A program made the translations under genes and the position numbers. From Bdellovibrionota bacterium (lineage in GTDB: Bacteria; Bdellovibrionota_C; UBA2361; CAKMMH01): a DNA stretch of 64,000 nt. The notes under the pieces were generated by a model. It did no database searches. It was not told the origin of the DNA and saw only the letters and a program-made list of their open reading frames with translations. This document shows, piece after piece, positions 11,205-39,743 of this stretch (position 1 is the stretch's first letter; each line of letters begins with the position of its first letter). Where the stretch lies: the NCBI GenBank assembly GCA_050952645.1, contig JBMNLI010000017.1:32001-96000 (forward strand), read 5' to 3'.

Positions 11205-12305
<1,101 letters not shown>

Positions 12306-12384
12306 CAAACACATCAAACAATTATGTATATAACATAAATAATAATATGTAATTATATAACAATTAAGGTAAAAATAAAACGAA

Positions 12385-13760: not shown

Positions 13761-13804
13761 AAATAAACAATAAAAAATAAATTAAAGGAGTATTTAAAAA
13801 AATA

Positions 13805-15730: not shown

Positions 15731-15759
15731 GAAAATAAAATAAAACAAGGAAAGATTAA

Positions 15760-19208: not shown

Positions 19209-19292
19209 GCCTGGATGGTGGAATTGGTAGACACGTTGGACTCAAAATCCAATGCTAGAAATAGCGTGAGGGTTCGACCCCCTCTCTAGGCA
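19209..19292 (+). tRNA. tRNA-Leu (anticodon CAA)
   Basis: Acceptor stem GCCTGGA/TCTAGGC + A, D-loop GGAATTGGTAGAC, anticodon stem TTGGA/TCCAA with loop CTCAAAA, long variable arm, GGTTCGA T-loop; CCA not encoded. Confidence 0.96.
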
Positions 19293-19440
19293 TACTTTTT
19301 ATAAGTCATTAACAACAAACCTTAGCTTATATAAATTATAAATCTAAAATTTAATTAGTATATTAAAAAACCTTTCTTATTTTCTCTCTTACTATTTTTT
19401 CCTATTTAAAATTTTTATACTTTTGCTATAATCTTATCTT

Positions 19441-21681: not shown

Positions 21682-21703
21682 TAAATATAAAATAAATATT
21701 AAA

Positions 21704-23655: not shown

Positions 23656-26058
23656 TTAACTCTTAGGTCTTTTAAATGATGATACTACGCCTTTAACTCT
23701 AGACTTAGAAGATGAAGTTAATTTAAATTTTCCCTTGCTTTCTTTTTGTTCTTCAGGTTTTGATTTTTTATCGTTTTTATTTTGACTATCTTTATTATCA
23801 TTATCTTTATTATTATCTTTATTATTATCTTTATTATTATCTTTACTATTATCTTTTTTATTATCTTTATTTTTATTCGATTTTGCTACACTTACAACCG
23901 TTACGCTTTCTTTAACTTCATCATTTTCAGGATAACTTTCAGGATAACTTCCAAAATTATCTGTAATATCTTTAGAAGAAGGAGCCTCTTTAAAATTTTC
24001 ATTATTAGCACTTGCTACTCTAGTAACGTTTCCTTGAAATTTAATCCCTCCTACTAATCCACGCTTAAAACTCGTCTCAGATAAATTTACTGTTTTCTCC
24101 GTTTGTTTCCTTGTTCTATTTTGAGAAGCTTTAGGTTTATCGCTACTACTGCTGCCCCCACTACTCCCCTTATCTTTCTTTTCTTTATTAGTATTTCTTG
24201 AAGGTTTTTTGCTTCTCTCTTGATTATCGCTACTTTCTAACTCTAAGTCTGCCTGTTCTAATGAATAAATTTTTTCATCTACCCATTCTGCTAAACCTAT
24301 CTCATCATTTTCTATTTTTTCAAATTGATTGATGTACTCTCTTCCCTCCCAAGTAGGTGGAAGTTCAGCATTAAACCAAAACGAACGCCCTTTAACTATT
24401 TCTCCATTTCCTAAATCGAAATATGCTAAACCTTTTTCAGCAGACATCTCGTGTTTTAACTCTTCTGCGCTTACTAAATCAGTTTCAGCTTCAGTTATAC
24501 TATAATTTTGAGACTCTCCTCCGCTTTCCTTTACACCAAACCCAGAACTCGCAACGCTAGAGGAAACTCCACTTCCGATAGATCTTTTAACCGTAGTAAT
24601 TTTACCTATCCAGTTAGACATATCATCGGCAGTTTGATTATCTCCTAAACGCATCATAACTTTTAAGTTTACGTTTGCCATAACACGCTCATAAAATGAT
24701 TGGCTAAGCCCGAGAGAGTTATCCATTAAACCACCAGTCGATTGCGCCCCGAATATAAGAGAAAATCTTCCTTTTCTTGCTAGCTCAAATAAGTTTGCCC
24801 AAGTAGGACCAAATGTTGAGGAGCCCTCATCTATAATAACTAAGTGTGGGTCTTCTAAGTGATGTTGCCTAGATGATGTAATTTCACCTATGGACACCTC
24901 TAAATCCTCTCTAAAAAGTTTTACCATTCTCGCAGCACTTTCTGCATCTTCAAGTCTTGGAAGCATAAAATATATAAGTTTTCCTCTTAAAATTGCGTCC
25001 GTTAAATTTAAGTCGGTATAATTAGTGCAAAATATCCCTCCCATAGAAGAACCGCTTATCGCATGAAGCTCAGATGAGATACCTCTTAAGTTATCAGTAA
25101 TTTTTGAAGTATCGAGTATTCCTTTTTTATCTCTATAACTTGTGGCTAAGTGGCCTAACTCGACTACTGCCTGTTTCGCACCTATTTTTTCAAGCATAGC
25201 CTTTAAGTGAGGATACGCTAAATTAAAAGCTGAAAGTGCCATGGCAACATCTTTTATAGACCAAGCAAGCCCGAAGCTTTCTAGAGCTCTAATCATTCTA
25301 TTGATCGAGTCGGAAGCTAGCCTATCGTAGTGCTTAGTGGCGCTTTGATCTGATGTTGGCGGAAGCCCAGCACGGAGAACTTTTCTTGCCTTTACATCTG
25401 CTCTTTGATTCGTTAGCACAAAATTATATGAGTGAATAGTATCGAAAGGATCGATAACTATTAAATCTTCTATCCTTCCAGTTATTAGCGCCATTAAAAT
25501 AATATCTGCTAAAACTCCCGAGTCACGCTTTGCATCTATAAATGTAAAACCGCTAGCTCTTCCTCTAGCCATTTGTTGAAACATTAAGGATTCTACCCAA
25601 AGAGTTTTACCAACGCCAGTTTTAGCAAATACGCACCCGTGGCTACACATATCATTATCGCTTAACCACAAAGGCTCTCCAGAGTCTAAACTAAAACCTA
25701 CTAAATATTTATCTATTATTTTCTTTCCTTTCGCTCTCGCCTCATCTAGCGCTATTTTAAAGCAATTCCTTTCAGGGGGCATTCCTAAAACATCTCTTCC
25801 CCCTCTTAAAATTACTTCACTTTCTCTATGTCGCTCTACGGCGTAATCTGTTGCTATCTCTTTAACTATGTTACAATAAAAAAATACGGGTAGAAAAGAG
25901 CCAATTAAAAATAAAACGAACGCATTTATTCCTTCCCATATAGGCAATAAAACTATAATAATTAAAATAATAGTTGCAAAAACTGCTCGTTTTATAAGCG
26001 TATCTCGCAAGTGTTCTTTCTTTTCATCGTATGTTATCTTATCGTACTGCCTAGCCAT
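23656..26058 (-). CDS. Type IV coupling protein (TraD/VirD4 superfamily; DotL/TrbC-like)
   Basis: Two N-terminal TMs, Walker A AKTGVGKT, FIDAK.D, GRIEDL, Walker B LVIIDE, AR..RFSLIFGAQS, AN.NLKVMMRLGD..TA; long charged tail. Confidence 0.85.
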   Translation of the reverse strand: MARQYDKITYDEKKEHLRDTLIKRAVFATIILIIIVLLPIWEGINAFVLFLIGSFLPVFFYCNIVKEIATDYAVERHRESEVILRGGRDVLGMPPERNCFKIALDEARAKGKKIIDKYLVGFSLDSGEPLWLSDNDMCSHGCVFAKTGVGKTLWVESLMFQQMARGRASGFTFIDAKRDSGVLADIILMALITGRIEDLIVIDPFDTIHSYNFVLTNQRADVKARKVLRAGLPPTSDQSATKHYDRLASDSINRMIRALESFGLAWSIKDVAMALSAFNLAYPHLKAMLEKIGAKQAVVELGHLATSYRDKKGILDTSKITDNLRGISSELHAISGSSMGGIFCTNYTDLNLTDAILRGKLIYFMLPRLEDAESAARMVKLFREDLEVSIGEITSSRQHHLEDPHLVIIDEGSSTFGPTWANLFELARKGRFSLIFGAQSTGGLMDNSLGLSQSFYERVMANVNLKVMMRLGDNQTADDMSNWIGKITTVKRSIGSGVSSSVASSGFGVKESGGESQNYSITEAETDLVSAEELKHEMSAEKGLAYFDLGNGEIVKGRSFWFNAELPPTWEGREYINQFEKIENDEIGLAEWVDEKIYSLEQADLELESSDNQERSKKPSRNTNKEKKDKGSSGGSSSSDKPKASQNRTRKQTEKTVNLSETSFKRGLVGGIKFQGNVTRVASANNENFKEAPSSKDITDNFGSYPESYPENDEVKESVTVVSVAKSNKNKDNKKDNSKDNNKDNNKDNNKDNDNKDSQNKNDKKSKPEEQKESKGKFKLTSSSKSRVKGVVSSFKRPKS

Positions 26059-26098
26059 TTAATTTTTTTATATTCTAAACCTTTAAATTTATATTTAT

Positions 26099-28009
26099 TT
26101 AATTTACATCTATCTTCATTTCAGTTGCTTTAGTAATTACTACTCTTTTTACTTTCTCTATCTCATCTGCCCATCTTATGCCTAGAAAATCTACAAGCTT
26201 AGAGGTTCTAAATAAAACTACTCCAGCAACATCTTTTATTTCATCTTCGTTAGTTAAAAATTTACAATCTATTACAGCATTATAAGGAACGTATCTATCC
26301 GATACCATTTTTCCAAGCCAGCTAAATGAATTTAAACAAGAGCGTAAATTTTGCCATACCTTTACATCGCTCTCATTGGGTAGAAATTTTAGCATTTCTT
26401 CTTTCGTTTCTTCAGAAAATTCTTTTAAAAATAAATTATTATCATCAGATAAAGTTTTTTGCTCTACTAAAGATAGTAGATTATCAGTTTCCCTTTTATT
26501 GTATACACGTTTTATAAGCTCTGTCATTTCTATTAAATCATTTTTCATCGCATCATTTAACAAACTAACTATAATCTCAATTTTAACGAACAATTGTCCG
26601 CTCTCTGTAGTATAAAAATTATCTTTAAGAGCATCGCTATTTTCTATATGTTCTACAAATATTTTAGTCCAAGCTTTATGAATTTCTGTGGATTTTGCAA
26701 AAAACAAAAGTTCATCGATAGCGTCATCGATTTCATCAAAGTGTAGTATTAGCTCTAGCCATTGCCTTAGAGTATAAGATTGGATATTCATTTTAAGTGG
26801 CATTCTAATTTCTAGAAAATCACTCTTTCTTTCTGCAAACACTATCGCCTTTCTTATCATTTCTCGCTCATCAAATGAATATTCGTCGCCATAATCTGGG
26901 CAAGAGTGGAGCACTGCCCGAGCGCAAAGATGCGGATAATTAGAGTGGCTTGCCCATCTATTTTTTGCGATATGATCGTATGCTAAAATTCTTCCCGCTT
27001 CTAGAGCCATAATTGCAGTTCCAATGCTTTTAGGGGAAATATTTTTTAATGCGTCTTTCATATTTTCAGTTAAAGAATTTATCATATTTACTTTTCTTTT
27101 GTTATCTTTAGGCACTCCTATATTTTTATTTCCATTATTAGATTTGTTTTCGCTTAAATTATCTTGATTTAAACTTGCTTGAATTTCAAAAGCACTTTTT
27201 AAAAATTCATAAGTATCTTCAAATAAATTCCCTTTCCCTTCTCCATCATCTATACTTGTAGGATAATTGTAATAGTGAAGAATAATAGAAGCTAAATATT
27301 TATTAGTTAAATTGCTAGCATTGTATCTCTCTAAGAGCACACAAAAAACAGACTTGTTATAAAACGTATCAGATACTTTCTCTAAGCAAGTAAGCCCAGG
27401 GACGTGGAGTGTTGGATTGCCATTTTTATCGCATTTTTTAATATCTGCCCTAGCACCAGAATAGAACAAGCGACCATTTCCAGAAACTCCTAGAAAATCT
27501 TTTGCCTTATATGGTTTTACATTTAATGTAGCGCGCACTGCAGCGTATATAACACATACTGCCCAAACTTTCCAACATGCAAGCATTACAAAAATTATTT
27601 GCAAAATAGAATTTGATATAATCACAAACGATGAAATTAGCAACGGGGATGATGGGAATATTTTACATATAGATAGAAATAAATTAAATATAAAAAGCGA
27701 AATTAAAGAAAAAAACGAAAGCTCTCCTTTAGTGCCGAACTTTGAAAGCCAAATATAGTATTTTTCAAATGAATCAACGATTGAAATATTTTTCCCTATC
27801 TCTTGTATTTCATGTAGGCTATCGAAAGCCTTGTTTATAATATTAGTAGTATTTGAGAATAAAGGTAATAATTCTATAACGAATATTAAAACTGCAAAAA
27901 AAGCTAAAAATATATACGAATAGTATGTAGACTTTTTCTCGTCCATAAGAGAAACAATATCTTTTGTCTCTGCATCATACTTGATATTTTTAACCATAAA
28001 AAACGACAC
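26099..28009 (-). CDS. Membrane protein co-oriented with the coupling protein gene (possible DotM/TrbA-like partner)
   Basis: N-terminal TM helices plus a large helical soluble domain; directly upstream of the T4CP gene; family assignment weak. Confidence 0.45.
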   Translation of the reverse strand: MSFFMVKNIKYDAETKDIVSLMDEKKSTYYSYIFLAFFAVLIFVIELLPLFSNTTNIINKAFDSLHEIQEIGKNISIVDSFEKYYIWLSKFGTKGELSFFSLISLFIFNLFLSICKIFPSSPLLISSFVIISNSILQIIFVMLACWKVWAVCVIYAAVRATLNVKPYKAKDFLGVSGNGRLFYSGARADIKKCDKNGNPTLHVPGLTCLEKVSDTFYNKSVFCVLLERYNASNLTNKYLASIILHYYNYPTSIDDGEGKGNLFEDTYEFLKSAFEIQASLNQDNLSENKSNNGNKNIGVPKDNKRKVNMINSLTENMKDALKNISPKSIGTAIMALEAGRILAYDHIAKNRWASHSNYPHLCARAVLHSCPDYGDEYSFDEREMIRKAIVFAERKSDFLEIRMPLKMNIQSYTLRQWLELILHFDEIDDAIDELLFFAKSTEIHKAWTKIFVEHIENSDALKDNFYTTESGQLFVKIEIIVSLLNDAMKNDLIEMTELIKRVYNKRETDNLLSLVEQKTLSDDNNLFLKEFSEETKEEMLKFLPNESDVKVWQNLRSCLNSFSWLGKMVSDRYVPYNAVIDCKFLTNEDEIKDVAGVVLFRTSKLVDFLGIRWADEIEKVKRVVITKATEMKIDVN

Positions 28010-28745
28010 CTAAATACATTTAAATTATAGATAATAACAAGTTTAGCACAAAAAGTCTTCTTATATCAAAAAATTTTTAAAAAGACCTATTTTCTTCTAT
28101 TTGTTATTACTTGTATAAGATATCGGATTTTTATAAAATAAAATAAATACGTTATTTAAAATAAAAATATGGCTTATCTTAGTTTTCTTATTGTTGTTTA
28201 AACTTTGTTGTTTAAACTCTAAGCTCAAGTTTTGTATCTCAATATTAAAAAGAGTTTAAGCTGCCTTAAAACGTGGAGAGTTAGAAATATCTATAACAGC
28301 GTTTTATACATCTATCTTATATTCTACTTGTGGTACATAAGTAATTTTATATAATAAAATCAATTTGTTATAGCTAATATATTTAACAAAAAACTCCTAA
28401 GTTAGTACCACTCGTTTAGAAAAAATTAAGATATTAAAAAATATTAAAAAGGTAGAAGCAAAATAGCCTCGCACGCTGATAAAGATTATGATGAATTTCT
28501 AAGCAAAATTCTATCAAGGTTTTGTAAAAAATGTACGAACATTACATTACAAGATTTTTTATTTAAAAATGGAGTTCTTATATAAGTAAATATAAAAATA
28601 AAGCGAAAAACTATTATAGTTTACATTATAATTTATGAATAATTTATGAATAATTTACAAATAATTTATGAATAATTTATAAAATTTTAGCTATAATTAA
28701 AAATTTATTATTAAGGAACACCTGTGCGAAAAGGAGAATTTTTGT

Positions 28746-29135
28746 ATGAGACTTAAGGTATTTAATTTATTGGTTGCAACTTTGTTATTTTTATCAACGT
28801 TATTTATATCAACATTATTTATATCAACTTTTTTATCAGCAAATGCATTCGCAGATAATGCACCTTTCATAGAACAAGCAACTGATGCTCAAGTTAAAAA
28901 ATCGCAAGGTCATTACGCTAGAGCACGTTCGCTCCTTATTGCAGCAATAAACGAATTCGATAGAGGCACTAGCGTTGCAAACCCAGAGTCACTACTAGAT
29001 GTAAGCAGATTCCGCTCTACTTTAATAGATAGAGCAGAAGAGCTAGAAAGAATTTTAGACCCACAACCTAGAACTTCTAAAGAGGGAGTTAGATTCTCGC
29101 CTGATACTAGGCTATTAGGTGAGGCTGTAAATTAA
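28746..29135 (+). CDS. Secreted hypothetical protein, first gene of the T4SS operon
   Basis: AAGGAG RBS; signal peptide ending ANAFA. Confidence 0.7.
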   Translation: MRLKVFNLLVATLLFLSTLFISTLFISTFLSANAFADNAPFIEQATDAQVKKSQGHYARARSLLIAAINEFDRGTSVANPESLLDVSRFRSTLIDRAEELERILDPQPRTSKEGVRFSPDTRLLGEAVN

Positions 29136-29259
29136 GATGGCTAAATTTAAAATGGCTGAATTTAAGATGGCTAAAATTAAGATGATTAGGTTTAATAAAA
29201 TAATTAAAAATGATACTAAAAACGATATTAAAAACGATATTAAAAACTAAGGAGTGTTA

Positions 29260-29664
29260 ATGGATAATGGAGAGGTTATTCCAAATTTAGATAAGCCTTG
29301 GGAGTTCTTAATGGCAAGAATTCACGAATGGCTTTCAGGAATGATATTCGCTTTAATAGTTAATGAGATTTTTCTAACGGACGCCATAAATGCGATGCCT
29401 CTTATCTTTGGAATTATGGTTCTCTCTACTTATGGATTAGCAAGCGCAAGATTAAAATTTCCAGATGGGACAAGGGGCTTTGTAAATTGGTGCTCAGTAA
29501 AAATAGTTGGAAAAGCACCAAATAGCATTCCTGCCCCTAGCGAGTTGCAACCAGTTTGGAGCGGTGCTCCCGTAAGAAGAATGAAGGAAAACACTTTGTT
29601 TATGCAGTTAGGGTTTGATGAGTTTTTTTTAGAAAAGAAAAAACAAAAAATGACAGATAATTAA
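29260..29664 (+). CDS. TraL-like (VirB3-like) inner membrane protein
   Basis: IPNLDKP..L....E motif then two TMs; AAGGAG RBS before ATG 29260; position before traE. Confidence 0.65.
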   Translation: MDNGEVIPNLDKPWEFLMARIHEWLSGMIFALIVNEIFLTDAINAMPLIFGIMVLSTYGLASARLKFPDGTRGFVNWCSVKIVGKAPNSIPAPSELQPVWSGAPVRRMKENTLFMQLGFDEFFLEKKKQKMTDN

Positions 29665-29677
29665 GGAAGGTTATAAA

Positions 29678-30337
29678 ATGGCAAATTTAAGAGAAAAAAG
29701 TCAAAAAGTTTTAGATAAAGCTAACGTTCAACCTCATAGAAAAGGGGATGACACTATAAGAATATGGGAAGGATATAGACAACAGGCAGTAATGTGGAGA
29801 GCACTATCTATTATACAGCTTCTTGCTACTACTGCTATCTCTATCTTATGTATTATATTATGGCAAACTCGCCAAATCACATTAAAAGTCCCACAAAGAC
29901 CAGTCCCTGGGCAATATAACACGCAAGAAATTCCTGATGCAGATTTTGTCGAAGCTGCAAACTCATTTGTAAGTTTAATAGCAACATTTCAACCATATAC
30001 ATCGGAAGAGCAATTTAAAAGAGCAGCAGCTTTAATCCATAGCAATCTTTTAGAAAGATTTACAGATGAGTTTTTAGACAATGAGTTAAAGGCGATAAAT
30101 GCTACATCTCTTTCACAAGTATTTTTTGTCGACCCATCGAAAACTACCATTGAAAGGTTTAGCAATAATACTGTAAGAGTAACTTTATACGGAGTAAGAC
30201 ATAAATATATAGGCGGTAGAGAGATAGAGCCAGTTAAGTCTAAGTATGTAGTTATTTTAACTACACTTCCTAGAAACGATCTTAATCCTTTAGGAATTGT
30301 AGTTACGGATGTAATTTTAGAAAAGGTGCAGAATTAA
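29678..30337 (+). CDS. TraE/VirB8-like T4SS protein
   Basis: Single TM, periplasmic domain ending NPLGIVVTDV (VirB8-like NPLG motif). Confidence 0.7.
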   Translation: MANLREKSQKVLDKANVQPHRKGDDTIRIWEGYRQQAVMWRALSIIQLLATTAISILCIILWQTRQITLKVPQRPVPGQYNTQEIPDADFVEAANSFVSLIATFQPYTSEEQFKRAAALIHSNLLERFTDEFLDNELKAINATSLSQVFFVDPSKTTIERFSNNTVRVTLYGVRHKYIGGREIEPVKSKYVVILTTLPRNDLNPLGIVVTDVILEKVQN

Positions 30338-30413
30338 AAAAAATTATATAAACGATTTTAAAAGTAATTATTTTAAAGTAATTATTTAAAAATAATTAAG
30401 AGAGATAAAAACT

Positions 30414-31238
30414 ATGAAAAAAGATACAAACTTATATAACTTATATAAAATATCACTTTTAATAATTTGCTCATTATTCATAGTAGTAAATGAATTCCTA
30501 GTAGTAAGTGATGCTTTTGCACGAGATGTCGAGTATAGAGGAAGCGAGCTAGATGTATTTGTAGCCCCTGGGGAGCCTACTCAAGTTCAATTCCCCTCGA
30601 AAGTGTTAGGAGGATTTAAAAAGAAAATCTCAGCAATATCACTCGATAAAAAAGGCTACGACTTAGTAATTTTTGCTACTGAGCAATTAACTGAAACTGG
30701 CGAGTCTATGATTATTAGGCTCGATGACGGAAGGTCTTACACATTAAGAATTAAAAAAGCTTCAGAAAATGAGAGAGATACTTTAGTAAGAGTAATAGAC
30801 AAAAGTCAATCTATTTTAACTAGTTCAGGAGAGGAAGTAAGCGATGCTGCAAAAAGTGCTTCTTCCCTTACATTTGCTCCGCCTACTAAAGTTTCAGGTC
30901 TTATGAGAGAAATGGTTTTAGCTTCTGAGTTTGGAAAAGGTTCTATAAATGGATATAGAGCGACAGACAAATATAGAGGCGAAACCGTAATAAATGATGG
31001 CGCTATACACGCTACCATAGATACGATATTTACCGGCACTAATCTGTGGGGGTATGTTCTCGATGTAAAAAATCTTTTAGATGTTTCTCAAAAACTAAAC
31101 CCTGCTACGTTTAGGCTAGATGGCACTAGAGCAATTTCCTTTGAAAAGTGGGAATTGTCTCCGCAACCATTAAATATTGAAGAGCAAATTGCTAAAGGGC
31201 ATAAAACAAAGGTTTATATAGTAACTAAAGCTAGATAA
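30414..31238 (+). CDS. TraK-like (VirB9-like) T4SS core protein
   Basis: Signal peptide, PTQVQFP, C-terminal GTRAISFE..EL.P...G.KTKVYIV typical of F-type TraK. Confidence 0.72.
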   Translation: MKKDTNLYNLYKISLLIICSLFIVVNEFLVVSDAFARDVEYRGSELDVFVAPGEPTQVQFPSKVLGGFKKKISAISLDKKGYDLVIFATEQLTETGESMIIRLDDGRSYTLRIKKASENERDTLVRVIDKSQSILTSSGEEVSDAAKSASSLTFAPPTKVSGLMREMVLASEFGKGSINGYRATDKYRGETVINDGAIHATIDTIFTGTNLWGYVLDVKNLLDVSQKLNPATFRLDGTRAISFEKWELSPQPLNIEEQIAKGHKTKVYIVTKAR

Positions 31239-31257
31239 ATTTTAAAAGGTAAAAAAA

Positions 31258-32439: not shown

Positions 32440-32471
32440 TTTTTATTAGGAGCATTTAAAAGGTAAATACT

Positions 32472-32957
32472 ATGTTTGAAGTTATATTTAAAGTTAAGTT
32501 TAAAAACGTATTTAAAAAATTTATACTACTAGCTTTTTTAAGCATGTGTTTTAGTGGTTGCTATGCACTACAAAATATTTTCAATCCTTTTTACGAGCCA
32601 CCAACAGAGCACGCTCTAAAAGGAGAACTTAGCGACCTTGCTATCCAAGAAGGAACGACTAGCACGGGTAGTAGCGCTAGAGATGCCCTAGAGAGTATGG
32701 CAACGTACCAAAGAGCGCATCTACCGCAGCCAAACAACCCTGTTATGAGACCTGCGGTAGTAAGACTTATGTGGATACCAGATCACTTAAACACTCACGG
32801 CGATTTAGTTCCTGCTCACTATTATTATTTAAAAGTTTTAAGTGAAAGATGGGCAGTAACTGATGCGTTCGATTTAGAAAGACAATTAAATACGGGAAGC
32901 AAAGATACATCTAACATACCGTACATAAGTCAAACTGAGAATAAAGGGTATAATTAA
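32472..32957 (+). CDS. traV: TraV-like lipoprotein
   Basis: Lipobox FSGC; P.V.RLMWIPDH...GDL..AHYYYL.V...RW matches the TraV C-terminal motif. Confidence 0.8.
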   Translation: MFEVIFKVKFKNVFKKFILLAFLSMCFSGCYALQNIFNPFYEPPTEHALKGELSDLAIQEGTTSTGSSARDALESMATYQRAHLPQPNNPVMRPAVVRLMWIPDHLNTHGDLVPAHYYYLKVLSERWAVTDAFDLERQLNTGSKDTSNIPYISQTENKGYN

Positions 32958-33005
32958 ATTTTTGCTAGTAAAGTTTTTGTTAGTAAGTTTTTATTAGGTG
33001 CTAAT

Positions 33006-33467
33006 ATGATAAAAAATAATATAAAAATATTTATTTTAATTTTAAGTTTGCTCTTACTAGTAAGTTGCACTCCTAAATATAAAAAACCTTACAATGCTAA
33101 CGATAGAAGAGTTCATATCTTTGCAGTAAGAAAGCACCCACTTCCTCCTACATACAATAGGATAAAAACTGTGCATTTAGCTTCCCCACTTCCTAGTAGA
33201 AGCGAGCACCCGGTGTCTAACAAAGTAATTACTCCAGTTTTTCAATTTGAAGCGCAAGACTCTACTTTTGAAGAGGTTGCTTTAATTTTAGCAAACACTG
33301 CTAAATACTCGGTTTATTGCGACCCGAGTATCGCTAAAAAAGAGGTTTCAATAGTGACTTTAGGAACTATCGATGAAATTGCAGCGGAAATTGAAAGAGA
33401 ACACGGAATTAGAGTAAGAATCGATCACGTAGATAAAGAGGTAAGGTTTTTAGGACGTGGAGAATAA
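33006..33467 (+). CDS. Lipoprotein with secretin N0/STN-like (DotD-like) domain
   Basis: Lipobox LVSC; 'FEAQDSTFEEVALILA....VYCDPSIAKKEVSI...GTIDEI' resembles the N0 beta-alpha pattern. Confidence 0.5.
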   Translation: MIKNNIKIFILILSLLLLVSCTPKYKKPYNANDRRVHIFAVRKHPLPPTYNRIKTVHLASPLPSRSEHPVSNKVITPVFQFEAQDSTFEEVALILANTAKYSVYCDPSIAKKEVSIVTLGTIDEIAAEIEREHGIRVRIDHVDKEVRFLGRGE

Positions 33468-33518
33468 ATGGAAAAGAACTCTAAACTTAGAAAGGTTTTA
33501 TAAAGGAGATTTTTTAAT

Positions 33519-36230
33519 ATGAGTATCTCAAGACTTCAGAAAGAACGATTATTTCATGATGAAGAGTTGTTTAATGATTTACTAACGTATGCAGAGTATG
33601 ATGAAGATTATAGAATTTTCTTTCATTCAGACACATCTTTTTGGGCCATATTTAGGCTCCAACCTCTAGGAATAACTAAAGTATCTGATAGCGATGCTTT
33701 TGCTACCGCTGATGCAATAAAAGAACTCTTTGATACATTCGATAAGAATATGGCAGTGCAAGTAAACTGGATTACAAGTTTTGAAATCGAAGCTCTTCTT
33801 AAAGAGAACCTAAACTCTTATCCTTTAACGGGGCCTGCTGGTTGGATGGCAAGGCGTTGGATTAGAGCCATTAGAAATGCTTCAAATAGTGCAGAGTTTT
33901 CTCTAAGACCTAAAAAATTAGACTTACTATTTTGTTTTAGATACGACCCACAGTGGAAAAGAAGAGACATAGCTGGGCAACTTGCAGAGGGTATGAGATC
34001 TATTTTTTCATTTTCTTCAAATAATATGTCCGCAGATAGAAGAAGACTAGAATATACAGAGCATGCTAATAAATTTAAAGGGATTATGGAAGGAACTGCT
34101 GCGAAACTTTCAGATTTAGGGTTTAGACCTTATCAATTTGAAGCACAAGATTTAATAGACTTAATGTTCCCTCTTTTAAATAGAAGAAGCACAAAGGGCG
34201 GAAAATACAAACGTGGCAGAAATACTAATGTAGCAGTGCCAGTCTATGACCCATTAGAAATACTTTCAAATCAAATTTCAGAAACTAAAGTTGAGCATCC
34301 TGAAAATGGAATTATAAAGAAAGATGGTAGAGTTTACAGAACTGTTTCTATGGTTCAAACACCTAAACAATGTTTACCTCTTATGATAGCTCCGCTTCAA
34401 TCTGCCTCTTATGAAAATATTTTAAGCGTAACTTACTCTAAAGACACTCAAGAAAAACAATTAAAAAAATTAGACCAAAGAGATGCGATGTTAGGATTTA
34501 GAGAACGAACTGCAAGGGGTAGAGCTAACCAAAAAGTTTTACATCAAATTTCTGCTATTCGTGCAGCTAGAGCAGAACTCTACGCTTCACGTTCTCAAAT
34601 AGTGCGAGTTGGTGTGCACCAAACTTTTATTAGCCAAAACGAAGATGAGGCTAAAAGGGCTTCCGCTGAGGCGATAGCTACAATATCTCAGTTAAATGGA
34701 GCTAGAGGTATGGTGCATGATATTTCAGATTTAGCGACCTTTATCCACTCTCTCCCTGCTATGTACGACCCAGAAATGGATGGCGAAGGCTGGACAGTTA
34801 CTATGCGTTCGTCTAGAGCTGCTAGACTGTTTCCTATTTATGGAAACTGGAGAGGGACTAAAGGAAAACAATTTTTGCTTCCGTCTTTATGGAATAGAGA
34901 ACTAGTAGGATTTGATTTATACGATTCTAACATAGCTCCAAACGTTTTAATAAGTGGAGTTTCAGGTTCTGGAAAAAGTTATTTGCTTTGCTATATGCTT
35001 ATAACGCTAGGCAGAGGGCACTTTGCTTCTCTTCCTAATGGAAGAATGGTTGAAAAACCTCCTATTATATTCGTTTTTGACAAAGGCATGACTGGGCAAC
35101 CTTGCGGCTTTGAAAAAGTTGCAAAATTATTTGGAGGAAGAATTTACGAAGCTACTCCATCAAAAGCACCTGCTATGAACTTTCTTGCTAGACTAGGAAG
35201 AACTGCTCCCGACCCTAGGAATGAAGACTACAAAGACTTAATAGATATGTGTGCAGATATTATATGCAACATGGCAGTCGAGGGAGCTAAGCAACCAGGA
35301 AGACTTGAAAAAAACGTAGTGATAGCCTCTCTAGTTGAAGCGCACAGGCTGTATAGAAACGGCCCTATGAGAAGAGAGTTTATTTTAAGTGATGCCGTTG
35401 CGGTGCTTAGAGCCCCTAAAAGAGTCGATGAAGATGAAGATACTGCAAAACGCAGACAACTAGTAGCGATGCTTATCGCCGATTATTACGGCGATGGAAC
35501 TTACGCAAGGTTCTTTGATAGACCTGGCGCTTTAAAATTACAAGAACGCTTTATAGTATTCGATTTAAAAGCGTTAAGTAGAAACCCAGACCTACAAAGA
35601 GTGTTTTTACAAGTAGCGATGCTTTGGGCAGATACCGTGATGAATGACCCTATGGAATTAGACTCGAGAAAAATATTAGTATTCGACGAGGCACACGACC
35701 TGATAGGTAAAACCGCTTCGGGAACCGTGGAAACTGCATTTAGACTTTACAGAAAAAGAAAAGGTATAGTTATAGCTGCATCTCAATCTGGTGAAGACTT
35801 TTATTTAGGAGAAGGTGGGCAAGCGATAGTTCAAAACAGTGCTCATAAAATTTTCTTAAAACAAGACCCTAGTAAATTTCATATGACTGCAAAGGCTTTT
35901 AATTTAACTCCGCAACAAGCAGACGTAATATTAAGGCTTCATACGATAAAAGGATTAGAGTCGCAATTTTATTTAATATCAGACATAGGCGAGTCGGCTC
36001 TCGTGCTTCCATTAGAGCCAGCATTTTATTGGGTAAGCACCAACAATGGTGATGATAACCAAATGTTTGCAGATATGTTAAAACAAAACAATGAAAACTT
36101 TTTAAAAACATTAGAGCAAATAGTTGCTACTGCTCCAAATGGAGCACACGTTTTTAAAAGCAGAATGGATTTAAATAGAGAAAATAGAATAAACAATTTA
36201 AACAGTTATATTGATGATATGGAGAGATAA
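33519..36230 (+). CDS. traC: TraC/VirB4 ATPase
   Basis: FDLYDS..APNVLISGVSGSGKS (Walker A), VFDKG, G.YARFF, FIVFDL, LVFDEAH (Walker B), R.YRK.KG...ASQS, NSAHKIFLKQ. Confidence 0.93.
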   Translation: MSISRLQKERLFHDEELFNDLLTYAEYDEDYRIFFHSDTSFWAIFRLQPLGITKVSDSDAFATADAIKELFDTFDKNMAVQVNWITSFEIEALLKENLNSYPLTGPAGWMARRWIRAIRNASNSAEFSLRPKKLDLLFCFRYDPQWKRRDIAGQLAEGMRSIFSFSSNNMSADRRRLEYTEHANKFKGIMEGTAAKLSDLGFRPYQFEAQDLIDLMFPLLNRRSTKGGKYKRGRNTNVAVPVYDPLEILSNQISETKVEHPENGIIKKDGRVYRTVSMVQTPKQCLPLMIAPLQSASYENILSVTYSKDTQEKQLKKLDQRDAMLGFRERTARGRANQKVLHQISAIRAARAELYASRSQIVRVGVHQTFISQNEDEAKRASAEAIATISQLNGARGMVHDISDLATFIHSLPAMYDPEMDGEGWTVTMRSSRAARLFPIYGNWRGTKGKQFLLPSLWNRELVGFDLYDSNIAPNVLISGVSGSGKSYLLCYMLITLGRGHFASLPNGRMVEKPPIIFVFDKGMTGQPCGFEKVAKLFGGRIYEATPSKAPAMNFLARLGRTAPDPRNEDYKDLIDMCADIICNMAVEGAKQPGRLEKNVVIASLVEAHRLYRNGPMRREFILSDAVAVLRAPKRVDEDEDTAKRRQLVAMLIADYYGDGTYARFFDRPGALKLQERFIVFDLKALSRNPDLQRVFLQVAMLWADTVMNDPMELDSRKILVFDEAHDLIGKTASGTVETAFRLYRKRKGIVIAASQSGEDFYLGEGGQAIVQNSAHKIFLKQDPSKFHMTAKAFNLTPQQADVILRLHTIKGLESQFYLISDIGESALVLPLEPAFYWVSTNNGDDNQMFADMLKQNNENFLKTLEQIVATAPNGAHVFKSRMDLNRENRINNLNSYIDDMER

Positions 36231-36235
36231 GAAAA

Positions 36236-36529
36236 ATGAGATTAAATATAAAAAATATTATTTGTGCTATATTGTTAATGCTACTATGTGCTTGCACTGC
36301 GACTACGCAAAAGCAATCTTCACAAGCATTAGAAATAAAGCATGAAGATAAGCAATACTTAAAAGAAGACCCTGCGGTAGTAGATTATATTTGGGAAGAG
36401 CCGATGGTTGATGTAGTAAAGGTTCCTCCAGGATTAGACCCTGAGGGGATTTATTATAGACCAGAGCATAAGGAAGTTATTGAAATTAGGCAAGGCAAAT
36501 GGCAATATTATAAAAAGCCACAAGAATAA
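36236..36529 (+). CDS. Small lipoprotein, second TraV-like protein
   Basis: Lipobox LCAC; P.V.VV.VP...D.EG..Y.P.H.....I..G.W parallels the TraV motif. Confidence 0.55.
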   Translation: MRLNIKNIICAILLMLLCACTATTQKQSSQALEIKHEDKQYLKEDPAVVDYIWEEPMVDVVKVPPGLDPEGIYYRPEHKEVIEIRQGKWQYYKKPQE

Positions 36530-36699
36530 GAAAATGCTACTAATTATAGTATAAACTTAAAAAAAGGTTTATAATATAAAATTTTATTCGCAATAATTTT
36601 TAAGTTAATATATTTTTTAAGTTAATATATTTTTTAAGTTAATATGGTTGCAAGTTTTTTTTATTATAAAAACGAACTTGCGCTTAAAGGGAATTTAAT

Positions 36700-37047
36700 A
36701 TGGGACTTATAAAAACTGTTTTTTCGCCTTTTACTAACACGACGCCACTAGTAACGATTATTTTAGTAGTTATACTAGTAGCAGTTTTTAGATTTTCAAA
36801 TGGAGGCATAAAGGTAGAAGATGCTAAGAATGTAAATGCTATAAAGGCTCAAAACGTAAAAATGGTAAAAGAAACTAAAAGAAATGATAGTTTGCCTAGC
36901 GAAGGGACTATAAAAATAGATGCCAAAGAGTTTGAAAGCATGTTAAGGCTTAGGAAACCTAAAGAACGTGTAGAAAACAATGTAGAAAAGGAGGATAAGC
37001 CTGTAAACACATTCGACTCCATAGAGGCAGATTTAGGCTTAAGGTAA
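36700..37047 (+). CDS. Hypothetical single-pass membrane protein
   Basis: N-terminal TM, 115 aa, AAGGG RBS-like sequence. Confidence 0.6.
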   Translation: MGLIKTVFSPFTNTTPLVTIILVVILVAVFRFSNGGIKVEDAKNVNAIKAQNVKMVKETKRNDSLPSEGTIKIDAKEFESMLRLRKPKERVENNVEKEDKPVNTFDSIEADLGLR

Positions 37048-37110
37048 TTAACTTTAAATAATTAAATTTAGATAATTAACTTAAGAAAATTGATTTTGAT
37101 AATATAAAAT

Positions 37111-37638
37111 ATGAATGAAAAGAGATTTATAATATACAAAACTTGGAAAAGTGAATATAAGCTCGTCATACTATCGTTTGTTAGTATGTTTCTTTCTATA
37201 TTTTTATCGAACCAATTTCCTGCAACAGTGCTTACTGTAAAGCTATTTCAAATAGGAAAAGAGATGCTAATTTTATCGATCCCTATTTTTTGGTTGCCAG
37301 CAGCTTTTTTTCTTCTTTGGGCACTTATTAGAATTTATAATGTTAGATATAGCATGACTGCAAAAGGCTTAGAAATAATAGTCGGCATTTTAGCTATAAC
37401 TAAGCGTTCAGTGAAAATAAGATATGAAGATATTAGAAGTGTTGAAACTGAGCAAACTATAATAGAAAGGATTTTAAATATTGGCACCGTTGAAGTTGGA
37501 ACCTCAGCAACGGGCGGTATTGAAATCGTATTTGAGGGAGTCGACTCTCCGCAGGAGCTACAAATACTTATACAAAAAGAAAAAGGGAGACGTTTAGCGC
37601 TTCACCAATCTAGCAAAGGATTTACATCTAATGAATAA
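37111..37638 (+). CDS. Membrane protein with bacterial PH (bPH_2) domain
   Basis: Two TMs then Y.MT...L.I..GIL.....I.YEDIRSV...Q.IIERILNIGTVEV.TSA. Confidence 0.85.
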   Translation: MNEKRFIIYKTWKSEYKLVILSFVSMFLSIFLSNQFPATVLTVKLFQIGKEMLILSIPIFWLPAAFFLLWALIRIYNVRYSMTAKGLEIIVGILAITKRSVKIRYEDIRSVETEQTIIERILNIGTVEVGTSATGGIEIVFEGVDSPQELQILIQKEKGRRLALHQSSKGFTSNE

Positions 37639-37689
37639 GATTGATGAATAAGATTGATGAGTAGGATTGATGAGTAGGATTTAAAAAAA

Positions 37690-38811
37690 ATGAATAGAGT
37701 GTTTATATATAAAATATTAGTTATTTGTAATTTAGTAAGCATACCGCTCGTACTCTCTATTGCAAATGCTCAAGAAAATATCGACTTAGAGCGAACCTTA
37801 AGCGAAGAAAGAAGAATTTTAGAGCAACTAAATATTTTAAAGAAAAATAATATAAATAACGATTCAAATAATAATTTAAATAATAATGCTTTAGATAACG
37901 CTCCTCCTCAACCTACACTAAATTTAAAAGAAATAAATGTTAAAGACTTAGATAAAGAAAGCATAAATAAAAAAGACACAAATTTAAAAAATACAAAAGC
38001 TACTCCTAAGCCTACAAAAGTTATAAAAATAGAAACACCAACGAAAAACGATGCAAGCGTTAGTAAAAATATCGTTAATAAAAATAAAAATATAGCGACG
38101 CCATTTCCACAAAAAGTTATAACTCCTAGTAATACGGATATTAGTAATATAAATACTAATAACACGAATACTAATAGTGCCAATACTAATAATGCTAATA
38201 ATAATAATACTAATAATATAGCTACAAACCAAGTTTTAGGTGAGCAAAATTTTAAAGAAAACGATTGCATTAAAGAAAATAAGCAACTAGAGCTAGCAAA
38301 TCAAAAAATAATAGAGCTTACTTCGGAACTAGAAAACAAGAAGAGGCAACTTATTTTAGTTGAGACCGAGGTTGAAAGACTATCTGAAATTATCGAAAAA
38401 AGAAATCGAGCTCAGTTAGGAAGTGCTACTAATAATCGCCCGTCTACTACCACTCAAAGCATTCCCGATAAACAAAAGCAGATAAGCGATATAAGAAAAT
38501 CACTAAGTGAGATAGATGCAGAGAGAGCAGATATGCCGATAATAGTAGTAAATGTAAGCAAAGCAAATTTAAGAGCAGGTCCTAGCTTAAGGGATTCCCC
38601 TTTACTAGAAGTATCTAAAGGAACTAGGCTAGTCGTTGAAACTAGGCAAGGCTCTTGGTATAGGGTAATAGCTCCAAATGGAAAGCGTGCATGGGTTTCC
38701 TCGGATGTGGTCGATTTTGGCCCTACTTCAAGCTCTAGACCATCTTATACAACGAGAATAAAAGGATATAACCAAGATGTTGAGGATAGGACGGAAAGTA
38801 TATTTAGATAA
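37690..38811 (+). CDS. Secreted coiled-coil protein with C-terminal SH3b domain
   Basis: Signal peptide, Asn-rich linker, coiled coil, ANLRAGPS....GSWYRV..PNGKRAWVS. Confidence 0.82.
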   Translation: MNRVFIYKILVICNLVSIPLVLSIANAQENIDLERTLSEERRILEQLNILKKNNINNDSNNNLNNNALDNAPPQPTLNLKEINVKDLDKESINKKDTNLKNTKATPKPTKVIKIETPTKNDASVSKNIVNKNKNIATPFPQKVITPSNTDISNINTNNTNTNSANTNNANNNNTNNIATNQVLGEQNFKENDCIKENKQLELANQKIIELTSELENKKRQLILVETEVERLSEIIEKRNRAQLGSATNNRPSTTTQSIPDKQKQISDIRKSLSEIDAERADMPIIVVNVSKANLRAGPSLRDSPLLEVSKGTRLVVETRQGSWYRVIAPNGKRAWVSSDVVDFGPTSSSRPSYTTRIKGYNQDVEDRTESIFR

Positions 38812-39277
38812 AATTATTTATATTTTCTTATTAGCCATATTTACTACTAACTATTCTTATAGTTCGGAACCTTTCGTAAATCCCATAATGAGTGCAAGAC
38901 TATCTTCTAATTACGGACTACGTATACATCCAATAAAAAAATATAGCTCTTCTCATAGGGGCATAGACTTAGCAGCTCCTATGGACTCTCCTATTAGAGC
39001 AGCACAAAAAGGCATAGTCGTTTTTGCAGATAGGTATGCAGGATATGGTAATTTAGTAGTTATTCGCCATAAAGACGGCTTAACTACCCATTATGGACAT
39101 TGCTCTACGCTTTTAGTAGAACCGGGAACTTTCGTAAGGGCTGGTGCTATTATAGCTAGAATAGGTAGCACTGGAACTTCAACGGGGCCTCATTTACATT
39201 TTGAAACGAGAAAGAACGGCATCCCTTTAAATCCGCTAAAAGTTTTTCCCGATTTACTTACTCCTGCTAAAGGGTAA
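38777..39277 (+). CDS. M23 family metallopeptidase
   Basis: HRGIDLAAP, GYGNLVVIRH, THYGH, STGPHLHFE. Confidence 0.93.
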   Translation: MLRIGRKVYLDKIIYIFLLAIFTTNYSYSSEPFVNPIMSARLSSNYGLRIHPIKKYSSSHRGIDLAAPMDSPIRAAQKGIVVFADRYAGYGNLVVIRHKDGLTTHYGHCSTLLVEPGTFVRAGAIIARIGSTGTSTGPHLHFETRKNGIPLNPLKVFPDLLTPAKG

Positions 39278-39278
39278 G

Positions 39279-39743
39279 TTTTGGTTCTTCACGTTTTAGG
39301 TGGGTTAGCTTAAAAGAAAATTGGAGCTAGCTTTAGCTAGCGGAGATTTTCTTTTGGGCTTCGTCGATAAGTGATACTAATTTTAAGATCTAAAACCCAC
39401 CCTTAAACGTGAGGAAGCATTTTGGTTCTTCATGTTTTAGGTGGGTTAGAAAAATTGTTTTGGGGTTAGCTTAAAAGAAAATTGGAGCTAGCTTTAGCTA
39501 GTGGAGATTTTCTTTTGGGCTTCGTCGATAAGTGATACTAATTTTAAGATCTAAAACCCACCCTTAAACGTGAGGAAGCATTTTGGTTCTTCATGTTTTA
39601 GGTGGGTTAGAAAAATTGTTTTGGAGGTTAGCTTAAAAGAAAATTGGAGCTAGCTTTAGCTAGCGGAGATTTTCTTTTGGGCTTCGTCGATAAGATGGCA
39701 CTAATTTTTTAGAATTTAAAACCACCCTAAAACGCACAAGAAC
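39279..39743. repeat. Three tandem copies of a 141-163 bp palindromic (MITE/REPIN-like) unit
   Basis: Units start at 39279, 39420 and 39581 (TTTTGGTTCTTCAYGTTTTAGGTGGGTTAG); each has imperfect terminal inverted repeats and an internal AAAAGAAAAT..GCTAGC-TTTA-GCTAG..ATTTTCTTTT hairpin. Confidence 0.9.

Follow-up and report, generated by a model that had tools for sequence, protein, structure and literature searches.

A vertically inherited type IV secretion system of F-type descent, a possible effector translocator, in an uncultured bacterial lineage

The window analysed here, a stretch of 64,000 nucleotides, carries at positions 23656-39277 part of a type IV secretion system (T4SS) of F-type (MPF_F) descent. 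The system is inherited vertically across the lineage, and we lean towards reading it as an effector translocator. The lineage is uncultured, and its labels “Bdellovibrionota” and “predator or parasite” rest on record titles. The ORFs of the region were located at the positions given by an earlier reading of the letters (hereafter the sequence-only reading). As that reading had described, a tra operon on the forward strand diverges from a coupling-protein operon on the reverse strand. The AT-rich spacer between them (28010-28745, 736 bp) contains an 11-bp unit repeated 4.8 times (28628-28680) and no convincing long inverted repeat. A promoter scan of the spacer found 66 sites against 61 expected, which is uninformative in such composition.

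The TraE, TraK, TraB, TraV and TraC homologues proposed by the sequence-only reading were all recovered by family matches, those of TraK and TraV being below the cut-off in the window. TraE (29678-30337), a bitopic VirB8-like protein, matched PF05309 (1.5e-6, 28.2 bits, above the cut-off) and TIGR02761 (1.5e-6) and was present in 47 of the 52 loci compared. TraB (31258-32439), bitopic and VirB10-like, matched TrbI above the cut-off (8.9e-13) as well as the F-type TraB model NF010289 (1e-11), and was found in 50 of 52 loci. The secreted, VirB9-like TraK (30414-31238; 49/52 loci) matched TraK_C at 1.3e-4, below the cut-off; among 27 family members, TraK_C was matched by 22 and TraK_N by six. The lipoprotein TraV (32472-32957) likewise matched PF09676 below the cut-off (7.3e-3), and 26 of 27 family members matched this model (best 2.5e-4), with an invariant lipobox cysteine. 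Both families are thus weak in the copy of the window and recurrent among relatives. The VirB4 ATPase TraC (33519-36230) is of F type: PF11130 was matched over its whole N-terminal model (1.1e-13), together with PF19044 (1.3e-9), and among VirB4 models the F-type TraC model TIGR02746 scored 192 bits (1.2e-56; below its 567-bit cut-off) versus 98 for VirB4_CagE, 46 for PFL_4706 and 23 for Bac_Flav_CT_G. Among the matches listed, all 45 obtained with the full-length protein and 59 of the 60 obtained with its P-loop part were TraC/TrhC or unannotated, and none in either set was annotated as VirB4 or TrbE. Its nearest plasmid relatives were all F-type, with identities of at most 31%.

Two small genes precede traE. 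The first gene of the operon, orf129 (28746-29135), encodes a small secreted protein with a signal peptide, visible as an N-terminal hydrophobic segment, and stands at the operon start in 47 of 52 loci. It had no Pfam or PDB match, and its counterparts in other orders are longer (about 300 aa). The second, orf136 (29254-29664; 47/52 loci), had been called TraL-like, a name that found no sequence support: none of 27 family members matched the TraL model, and hhalign probabilities against two plasmid TraL proteins were 7.3 and 0.1. Its position before traE, that of TraL/VirB3, and its two predicted transmembrane helices are weakly suggestive of TraL.

The operon extends past the core genes with an N0-domain lipoprotein, small lipoproteins and bacterial PH (bPH), SH3 and M23 genes. 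The lipoprotein encoded by orf153 (33006-33467; 51/52 loci) has a C-terminal domain (residues 79-149) predicted to adopt an N0/STN-type fold (AF2 pLDDT 83.7). In Foldseek searches, this model was similar to PupR (7e-4), the N0 domains of MxiD (3.1e-3) and PilQ (4.1e-3), chains of the Dot/Icm outer-membrane complex (5.0e-3 to 6.5e-3), DotD (3ady, 4.9e-2) and Xanthomonas VirB7 (6.4e-2), suggesting that orf153 is probably part of the outer-membrane core complex. Downstream of traC, orf97 (36236-36529; 49/52 loci) encodes a small lipoprotein with a lipobox visible in the sequence and no Pfam or NCBIfam family match; it is tandemly duplicated in other orders. It is followed by orf115 (36700-37047), a small membrane protein with one predicted transmembrane helix, which is poorly conserved (recognised in 13/52 loci), and by a membrane protein with a bPH domain (37111-37638; PF03703, 2.4e-9), found at the same operon position in 28 of 52 loci. 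A secreted protein combining an SH3b domain with a low-complexity linker (37690-38811; SH3_3, 2.4e-10) recurs in 43 of 52 loci. The last gene encodes an M23 peptidoglycan endopeptidase (38777-39277; Peptidase_M23, 3e-35), which closes the operon in 39 of 52 loci and has five paralogues elsewhere in the genome; it is a candidate wall-remodelling enzyme for the machine.

The divergent operon encodes a coupling protein (T4CP) of 800 aa, T4CP_800 (23656-26058), with matches to TraG-D_C (4.6e-8) and to the NCBIfam models TrbC_conju (1.1e-14) and SXT_TraD (1.5e-14). It consists of a membrane N-terminus, an ATPase core conserved up to about residue 600 and a variable tail with tandem repeats; the Walker A stretch was invariant in 20 sequences. 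T4CP_800 was found in 74 of 78 genomes as a single copy, mostly at 54-83% identity. Directly upstream lies orf636 (26099-28009), a lineage-specific membrane protein with a helical N-terminus (1-163) and cytoplasmic domains (195-636); its AF2 model has a pLDDT of 78.8. It had no sequence match in Pfam, NCBIfam or PDB and forms a closed family of 282 representative clusters. The two genes always occur as a pair, which adjoins tra in 25 of the 39 loci with enough flank, and in all six loci unlinked to tra orf636 also precedes the T4CP gene. In the predicted complex of the two proteins, ipSAE was 0.85, 0.86 and 0.86 in three runs against 0.00 for the best of three controls. Of 157 complexes with solved structures, 116 reach this mark, as do two of 215 mismatched pairs; these figures apply only roughly here because our own alignments were used. 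At least 81% of contacts agreed between runs, partner pLDDT was at least 81, and the predicted interface joins the most conserved motifs of orf636 to invariant T4CP residues 161-170. These models suggest that orf636 is a T4CP-binding subunit.

The same protein bears on the idea that the system transfers or releases chromosomal DNA, as in the gonococcal genetic island (GGI), with an unrecognised relaxase nicking chromosomal or plasmid DNA that the machine exports; the nicking could possibly be done by orf636 or by a protein that the VirD4-type T4CP described below recruits. Two T4CPs are conserved, and the order of orf636 and its T4CP gene matches that of mobH and traD on an MPF_F/MOBH plasmid. 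A related plasmid system, Pseudomonas koreensis p3, is likewise typed without a known relaxase. The orf636 model also bears a faint likeness to HD-domain folds and to the C-terminal domain of STY4665 (Z 9.9, 8.0, 7.9 and 7.1), a combination that corresponds to the architecture of MOBH relaxases. These values, including those for YhaM (9h3f_A; Z 9.9, rmsd 4.0, 161 residues aligned) and the STY4665 domain (2ipq_X; Z 7.1, rmsd 3.9, 115 aligned), lie in the range that is unreliable for the tool. However, the hhalign probability of the orf636 family against the MobH relaxase was 0.14, none of 16 family members matched any relaxase or HD Pfam model, and the HD-like region contains no invariant His or Asp. 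Its motif PHLxARAV[LI][HQ]S is placed in the T4CP interface by the complex model.

Searches for known relaxases also speak against DNA transfer. In this genome (93.75% complete), none of the five relaxase families searched (PF03432, PF08751, PF07514, PF03389 and PF01076) was matched, nor were TraU, TraH, TraN, TraW_N and the pilin TraA. Within the window, a Pfam scan of 47 ORFs gave no match to relaxase, integrase, pilin or TraF/H/N/U/W/G families, as the sequence-only reading had stated. Of the three Pfam relaxase families counted over 78 genomes of the lineage, PF07514 (MOBH) occurred in none, while PF03432 (15/78) and PF08751 (TrwC; 4/78) were patchy and did not track the system; TraU was found in none of 29. 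On balance, we regard DNA transfer as rather unlikely. No relaxase, pilin, TraU, TraW or TraN module was found, and the lineage carries the machine as a fixed trait; the favoured effector translocator would therefore most likely export proteins, delivered by contact into prey or host cells.

TraC was detected in 40 of 41 relatives and, within the phylum-level group defined by the tool, in 95 of 96 genomes, including all 73 high-quality ones, as a single copy with 55-90% identity; these counts are not independent because the genomes are related to one another. Of the 52 loci, 46 retained the order of the nine core genes; the remaining six are truncated by contig ends or consist of TraC alone. 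Housekeeping genes surround the locus, namely mreBCD-pbp2-rodA (11268-16902) on one side and thrS (39727-41475), mgsA and dxs on the other; thrS and mgsA are common flanks only within the genus, and the core is kept while the flanks differ. The system is therefore not mobile. A decaying integrative conjugative element, or a recent island without its former relaxase and integrase, might be suspected from a tRNA gene (19209-19292) 4.4 kb from the end of the T4CP gene, with lineage-restricted ORFs of unknown function filling the gap. However, TraC and its gene order are near-universal and syntenic across about 35 families defined by the tool, with open frames, the genes of the system lie at several separate, conserved loci, and no integrase family was matched among the 47 window ORFs scanned. 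The composition is host-like as well (GC of 0.26-0.385 in the region against 0.30-0.33 across all 17 contigs). Such a decaying element is thus close to refuted. The tandem repeats finder TRF returned 150 rows in the 64 kb, several of them inside the cluster. The housekeeping setting, host-like composition and short tandem duplications had all been pointed out from the letters, and the view of a domesticated system rather than a conjugative element is now strongly supported.

The description of this system as minimal, on the other hand, proved wrong. Its parts span at least four loci: the tra operon, the orf636-T4CP operon, a TraG_N/VirB6-like operon and a solitary gene for a second, VirD4-type T4CP, the last being present in 72 of 78 genomes. 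The unlinked operon encodes, in order, a thioredoxin-fold protein, a 595-aa protein and a TraG_N-like protein, an arrangement that recurs in seven further loci and mirrors traF-traH-traG of an MPF_F plasmid. The likeness of the first protein to TraF is that of a generic thioredoxin (hhalign probability 33.6), and PF13728 matched small thioredoxins only. For the 595-aa protein, the nearest clusters in a protein atlas carry TraH on 10-16% of their members (23 of 30 named hits, score 0.93), and its position hints weakly at TraH. The TraG_N-like protein occurs in 73 of 78 genomes; the TraG_N match of the VirB6-like protein (26.1 bits) is below the cut-off of 36.1. One to five such genes are found per operon, with five in tandem in two genomes of other orders.

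The expansion of these VirB6-like proteins, with their long variable C-terminal parts, and the conserved wall-active M23 and SH3 proteins of the tra operon would also suit a T4SS-derived machine with another role, such as a surface or adhesive structure, the uptake of DNA or the killing of competitors upon contact. T4SSs that kill bacteria occur in Xanthomonadales. However, the known T4SS for DNA uptake can do without a T4CP, whereas two are conserved in this lineage, and no pilin was found. Killing and feeding are indistinguishable at the sequence level, and this alternative overlaps the favoured one because killing would also act through injected proteins. We consider such another role quite unlikely.

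As an effector translocator, the machine most likely works as follows. An F-type T4SS would have entered an ancestor of the lineage; since then, vertical inheritance has maintained it as a core structure of the cell. TraK, TraB and TraV, together with the N0 lipoprotein, would form the outer-membrane core, and TraE, TraC, the protein in the TraL position and the VirB6-like protein the inner-membrane platform. A passage through the cell wall might be opened by the M23/SH3 pair. Substrate proteins would be selected by the two T4CPs, of which orf636 holds one, and handed on to the channel for contact delivery into prey or host cells.

Among known systems, the layout is most readily compared with MPF_F plasmids. 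The MOBH-linked, SXT/IncA-C-like Klebsiella plasmid NZ_AP023339.1 shows the same order of TraE, TraK, TraB, TraV and TraC. Shared features are the F-specific N-terminal domain of TraC, a gene preceding that of the T4CP (orf636 here, mobH before traD on the plasmid) and a separate three-gene operon shaped like traF-traH-traG. In contrast to such plasmids, relaxase, pilin, TraU, TraW, TraN, TrbC-type and DsbC-type genes were not detected here, TraC is no more than 31% identical, and the system resides on the chromosome at several loci, is inherited vertically and additionally includes an N0 lipoprotein, a second T4CP and M23/SH3/bPH genes. The MPF_F megaplasmid P. koreensis p3 (CP027480.1) encodes a T4CP 27% identical to T4CP_800 over residues 116-581; its T4CP operon also diverges from traL-E-K-B-V-C, traF-(traH)-traG lies directly downstream, and MOB-suite types it as MPF_F without a relaxase. 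It differs in being plasmid-borne, in keeping TraW, TraU and TrbC, and in having no orf636 homologue among its ORFs.

The sequence-only reading had proposed a hybrid with a Dot/Icm-like coupling module, which is weakly supported. On the one side, DotL (6sz9, 8.8e-16) was the only solved protein that T4CP_800 matched by sequence, an obligate membrane partner of the T4CP is encoded just upstream, recalling the dotM-dotL gene order of Legionella, and orf153 resembles DotD at the fold level. Dot/Icm (type IVB) is also inherited vertically lineage-wide, in Legionellales. On the other side, orf636 has no detectable likeness to DotM, the closest plasmid-borne relatives of the T4CP belong to MPF_F plasmids that share the divergent layout, the VirB4 is of TraC type, the core is TraK/B/V, and no other Dot/Icm-specific family was matched in Pfam and NCBIfam scans of the cluster.

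The GGI is likewise a chromosomal F-like T4SS that does not serve plasmid conjugation. It was, however, acquired horizontally, is patchy in distribution and encodes a MOBH relaxase together with the complete TraW/U/N/F/H/G set, whereas the present system is lineage-wide and PF07514 was matched in none of 78 genomes. The rvh T4SS of Rickettsiales is also core, chromosomal and scattered over several loci, with tandem proliferation of large VirB6-like proteins and no pilin found. Rvh is of the VirB/P type, whereas the system described here is of F type and includes two T4CPs, one of which has a novel partner.

The F-derived T4SS of this genome is a fixed, multi-locus and vertically inherited structure of a whole uncultured lineage labelled Bdellovibrionota, and this is the solid result of the analysis. 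In the window it is encoded by two divergent operons that sit between the cell-shape cluster mreB, mreC, mreD, pbp2 and rodA (11268-16902) and thrS (39727-41475). The plus-strand tra operon (28746-39277) starts with the secreted orf129 (28746-29135) and with orf136 (29254-29664), which has two membrane helices. It continues with TraE (29678-30337), TraK (30414-31238), TraB (31258-32439), TraV (32472-32957), the lipoprotein orf153 (33006-33467), TraC (33519-36230), the lipoprotein orf97 (36236-36529) and orf115 (36700-37047), and ends with a bPH-domain membrane protein (37111-37638), an SH3b protein (37690-38811) and an M23 peptidase (38777-39277). The first gene of the minus-strand operon is orf636 (28009-26099), and the second is that of an 800-aa coupling protein, T4CP_800 (26058-23656). 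The GC of the region agrees with that of the rest of the genome. The sequence-only reading had described a tra operon divergent from a coupling-protein operon among housekeeping genes, with host-like GC and window-wide repeats; this was confirmed by the ORF positions, the family matches, the host-like GC and the genome-wide tandem repeats.

The short tandem repeats, whose units are 12, 15 or a similar number of nucleotides long, lie inside coding regions throughout the window (150 TRF rows in 64 kb; for example 23776-23877, 28784-28836, 38126-38218 and 57273-57427); both the tail of the T4CP and the signal peptide of orf129 contain some. The pattern looks like slippage that is habitual across the genome and extends low-complexity stretches of proteins. 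A longer unit of 161 bp is repeated 2.7 times (95% matches) at 39302-39734, in the gap that separates the end of the M23 gene from that of thrS. Rfam gave no match to it, and a hairpin resembling a terminator is present in each unit on the minus strand (39574-39557 and 39413-39396). Promoter and terminator scans were uninformative in this 31% GC DNA (66 sites against 61 expected, and 13 against 9.5). On the other side of the system, three ORFs of 746, 219 and 427 aa fill the space from a tRNA gene (19209-19292) to the T4CP gene (region 19209-23630). They gave no family match except a weak F5/8 type C, and BLAST matches in other loci were confined to the 427-aa ORF and to the closest relatives. 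Further along, at 54465-59669, a UvrD-like helicase (681 aa) adjoins a 1014-aa HerA/FtsK/T4CP-like ATPase. The latter (56625-59669) was considered as a T4SS part and rejected, being patchy (49/78 genomes) and multicopy with defence-type matches. In PADLOC the ATPase hit mad8 (2.6e-14) and the helicase hit GajB-type UvrD helicases, and the two are probably a defence or accessory pair outside the T4SS.

One copy of each system gene is present in this genome, which is 1.95 Mb in 17 contigs and 93.75% complete. TraC was found in 40 of 41 relatives and in 95 of the 96 genomes, at least 85% complete, of the phylum-level group, which contains a single class. All 73 high-quality genomes have it, and the single exception among the 96 is 89% complete. 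The full-length TraC matches are 55-90% identical with open frames. Synteny is conserved in relatives: the nine-gene order from orf129 to orf97 is complete in 46 of 52 loci, a set that probably counts some places twice. Five of the six incomplete loci are cut by contig ends, and the sixth has TraC alone. This last locus (G041:C55), from an 85% complete, 1.8 Mb genome of another order, carries a 55% identical TraC apart from other tra genes and is the only broken synteny in the 52 loci. Downstream genes are in place less often (SH3 in 43 loci, M23 in 39, bPH in 28), and the flanking housekeeping genes are common to the closest relatives only. No integrase family was found among the window ORFs scanned. 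The universal distribution, the synteny, the host-like GC and this absence of integrase families support the earlier view that the locus is not a conjugative element. A decaying ICE, of which the tra operon would be a remnant lacking its relaxase, is close to excluded by the same evidence. No cultured member appeared among the records seen; all 34 named lineage records are metagenome-type assemblies, 24 of them labelled Bdellovibrionota or Bdellovibrionales and the others bearing vague or conflicting labels.

The core genes are of F type. TraC matches PF11130 (1.1e-13) over model positions 1-374 of 375, that is, the TraC_F_IV N-terminal domain, and TIGR02746 at 1.2e-56 with 192 bits, under the 567-bit equivalog cut-off. 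Competing VirB4 models scored lower (VirB4_CagE 98 bits, PFL_4706 type 46, Bacteroidetes type 23), and tblastn with the whole protein or its P-loop part matched only TraC/TrhC types on plasmids. TraE, TraB and TraC exceed the Pfam cut-offs. The window's own TraK and TraV fall under theirs, while 22 of 27 family members match TraK_C and 26 of 27 match TraV. TraE, TraK, TraB and TraV stand in MPF_F order, an order kept in 46/52 loci. The gene previously called TraL-like found no sequence support, since the TraL model matched none of 27 members and hhalign gave probabilities of 7.3 and 0.1; orf136 fits TraL by its position and two TM helices only. Profiles of orf129 and orf153 had no PDB sequence matches. 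The model of orf153 (pLDDT 83.7) shows a lipoprotein with an N0/STN-type domain that is DotD-like at fold level, for which Foldseek returned secretin N0 domains, PupR and Dot/Icm OMC chains (5.0e-3 to 6.5e-3), as well as DotD 3ady (4.9e-2, TM by target 0.55) and Xanthomonas VirB7 (6.4e-2); the fold is generic, as secretin N0 domains and PupR score equal to or better than the Dot/Icm chains. We know of no N0-domain lipoprotein part in the solved F-type cores.

T4CP_800 occurs as a single copy in 74 of the 78 genomes that are at least 90% complete, for the most part at 54-83% identity; its Walker A stretch is invariant and its tail variable. The sequence-only reading had seen in it a Dot/Icm-like coupling module. 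In its favour, DotL was the only solved-structure match in the PDB sequence search (8.8e-16, two short stretches). Against this, no DotM likeness was detected in orf636, and the closest plasmid T4CPs (about 27% identity) are those of Pseudomonas megaplasmids, which are MPF_F plasmids. NCBIfam gave equal, weak matches to TrbC_conju and SXT_TraD (about 54 bits). In plasmid p3 of P. koreensis, typed MPF_F and without relaxase, the T4CP operon stands head-to-head with traL-E-K-B-V-C, as in the window. Since the nearest plasmid T4CPs lie on MPF_F plasmids with this same layout, a hybrid origin need not be invoked. On plasmid p3 (CP027480.1; 283 kb), two T4CP-like genes lie side by side and divergent from the tra operon. 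The plasmid is typed "non-mobilizable"; having no recognised relaxase, it shares the window's absence of a known one. A further relative is an orphan T4CP beside a protelomerase on the linear plasmid pLBX of Leptolyngbya boryana (NZ_AP014640.1, 352855-354924), with no further T4SS gene annotated nearby. Its identity to T4CP_800, 60% over residues 45-601, is within the lineage's own identity range and suggests a gene transfer between the lineage and cyanobacteria.

The orf636 gene always lies upstream of the T4CP gene, including six of six loci in which the pair is unlinked from tra; of 39 loci with sufficient flank, 25 have the pair beside tra. The protein matched nothing in Pfam or NCBIfam and nothing in the PDB below E 0.3, and a profile search of 1.84 billion proteins showed its family to be closed, with 282 representative clusters (best 150 of 282 listed). 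In the protein atlas no usable feature match was found and structure matches all had TM ≤ 0.31, and the family profile recovered no homologue among the ORFs of three plasmid loci. Its model (pLDDT 78.8) consists of a helical membrane N-terminus and two cytoplasmic domains, with no Foldseek match at E ≤ 0.001. Weak fold hints pointed to HD-type domains (YhaM, Z 9.9, rmsd 4.0, 161 aligned; Cas3-HD, Z 8.0) and to the STY4665 C-terminal domain (Z 7.1, rmsd 3.9, 115 aligned), all with Z values in the range flagged as possibly mere common arrangement. An HD fold together with an STY4665 C-terminal domain is the architecture of MOBH relaxases. Because the hints resemble it, orf636 was tested as a relaxase, without support: hhalign against a MobH relaxase gave a probability of 0.14, and neither a His nor an Asp is invariant in the supposed HD motif.

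Complex prediction placed orf636 on the coupling protein. With T4CP residues 100-600 and orf636 residues 165-636, three runs gave ipSAE values of 0.85, 0.86 and 0.86, and the controls reached 0.00 (best of 3). The level reached by the pair is attained by 116 out of 157 solved complexes and by 2 out of 215 mismatched pairs, a calibration that is rough here, our own alignments having been used. The runs agreed in at least 81% of contacts, and the partner's pLDDT did not fall below 81. The predicted interface joins the most conserved orf636 motifs (198-210, 355-368 and 382-406) to invariant T4CP residues around 157-169. We read orf636 as a putative T4CP-bound subunit analogous to DotM in position and role. 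Its gene position is the analogous one and it is predicted to bind the T4CP; no sequence or fold match to DotM appeared among the matches listed (PDB sequence, Foldseek, VIA).

The system had also been called minimal, which does not hold, as a conserved TraG_N-like operon and a VirD4-type T4CP are encoded elsewhere in the genome. On contig C4, a 1037-aa ORF has a weak TraG_N match (26.1 bits, under the 36.1 cut-off), and its N-terminal half was found in 73 of 78 genomes. One or two copies of this gene exist in the order of the window genome, and tandem arrays of about five in other orders. Such arrays of TraG_N/VirB6-like paralogues of 600-1150 aa were seen at G047:C1:2769998-2781080 and G050:C2:314967-326496, in two genomes of other orders; what they have in common with the copy in the window genome is confined to a conserved stretch of some 80 residues. 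The TraG_N-like ORF is preceded by a 443-aa secreted protein with a thioredoxin-like C-terminus (Thioredoxin_8 in 6/8 members). Against plasmid TraF, hhalign gave it a probability of 33.6, and the family profile 3.4e-5 in a small ORF set; PF13728 is unspecific, ringing in 9 of 14 control genomes and matching only small thioredoxins in the lineage. Between these two ORFs lies a 595-aa secreted protein without a Pfam match. Its nearest protein-atlas clusters carry TraH on 10-16% of members (score 0.93, a lead only), and neither Pfam (0/78 genomes over the cut-off) nor hhalign supported the assignment. The order of thioredoxin-fold, 595-aa and TraG_N-like proteins mirrors traF-traH-traG of an MPF_F plasmid. 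The second coupling protein, of canonical VirD4 type (PF02534, 3.4e-38), is single-copy in 72 of 78 genomes and 55-82% identical. It has no conserved neighbour, hence none that could be a relaxase.

For the families searched, no relaxase was found to accompany the T4SS. None of five Pfam families matched in this genome, and three of them are patchy or absent across the lineage: PF03432 Relaxase, PF08751 TrwC and PF07514 TraI_2 in 15, 4 and 0 of 78 genomes, in contrast to TraC in 95/96, with PF03389 MobA_MobL and PF01076 Mob_Pre also unmatched in this genome. TraU was found neither here nor in any of 29 lineage genomes, and TraH, TraN, TraW_N and the TraA pilin had no match in this genome. DotO/DotB and the DotC/F/G/H families did not surface in Pfam or NCBIfam scans of the cluster. 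The Pfam absences come from a genome 93.75% complete and are no proof, as divergent forms may escape. DNA export by means of an unrecognised relaxase is the main rival explanation, which we consider unlikely. Repeat search in the spacer between orf636 and orf129 revealed no convincing oriT-like hairpin, only AT-rich pairs of low complementarity and an 11-bp tandem unit. Two substrate-recruiting ATPases are kept and no recognisable DNA-processing or pilus module was found, so that protein translocation is the most economical reading. We infer, with moderate confidence, a function in contact-dependent translocation of proteins into prey or host cells.

No description of the system was found in open-access full text on Bdellovibrionota, Silvanigrella, Oligoflexia, Spirobacillus and T4SS/conjugative VirB4, nor any mention of it in PMC12428579 or PMC12321486. 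Each single core part is of a known kind. New are the combination of parts, the lineage-wide fixation, the orf636 family, the dual T4CPs and the added N0 lipoprotein. The orf636 family offers a new candidate T4CP partner for study. Since the records include no cultured member, the universal secretion machine gives the best clue at hand to how the lineage lives, and a starting point in the search for its effectors and targets.

Tentatively, the system may be the first F-lineage T4SS turned into a core, lineage-defining injection organelle. Its inventions would then be the T4CP-bound orf636 subunit family, a dual-T4CP gate, an N0 lipoprotein on TraK/B/V and proliferating VirB6-like proteins. If this is true, the presence of the system throughout would point to an entire lineage of predators or parasites that cannot do without contact with other cells, and the 60% identical orphan T4CP on the cyanobacterial linear plasmid would hint at the identity of the target cells. 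To our knowledge, the T4SSs that translocate effectors are of P-type (VirB) or I-type (Dot/Icm) descent, and the roles of F-type systems are conjugation and, in a single case, the release of DNA. An F-derived system that is vertically fixed and lacks the conjugation modules would widen the known routes from conjugation to injection machines, and the organelle, if such it is, would stand as a third independent case beside Dot/Icm of the Legionellales and rvh of the Rickettsiales.
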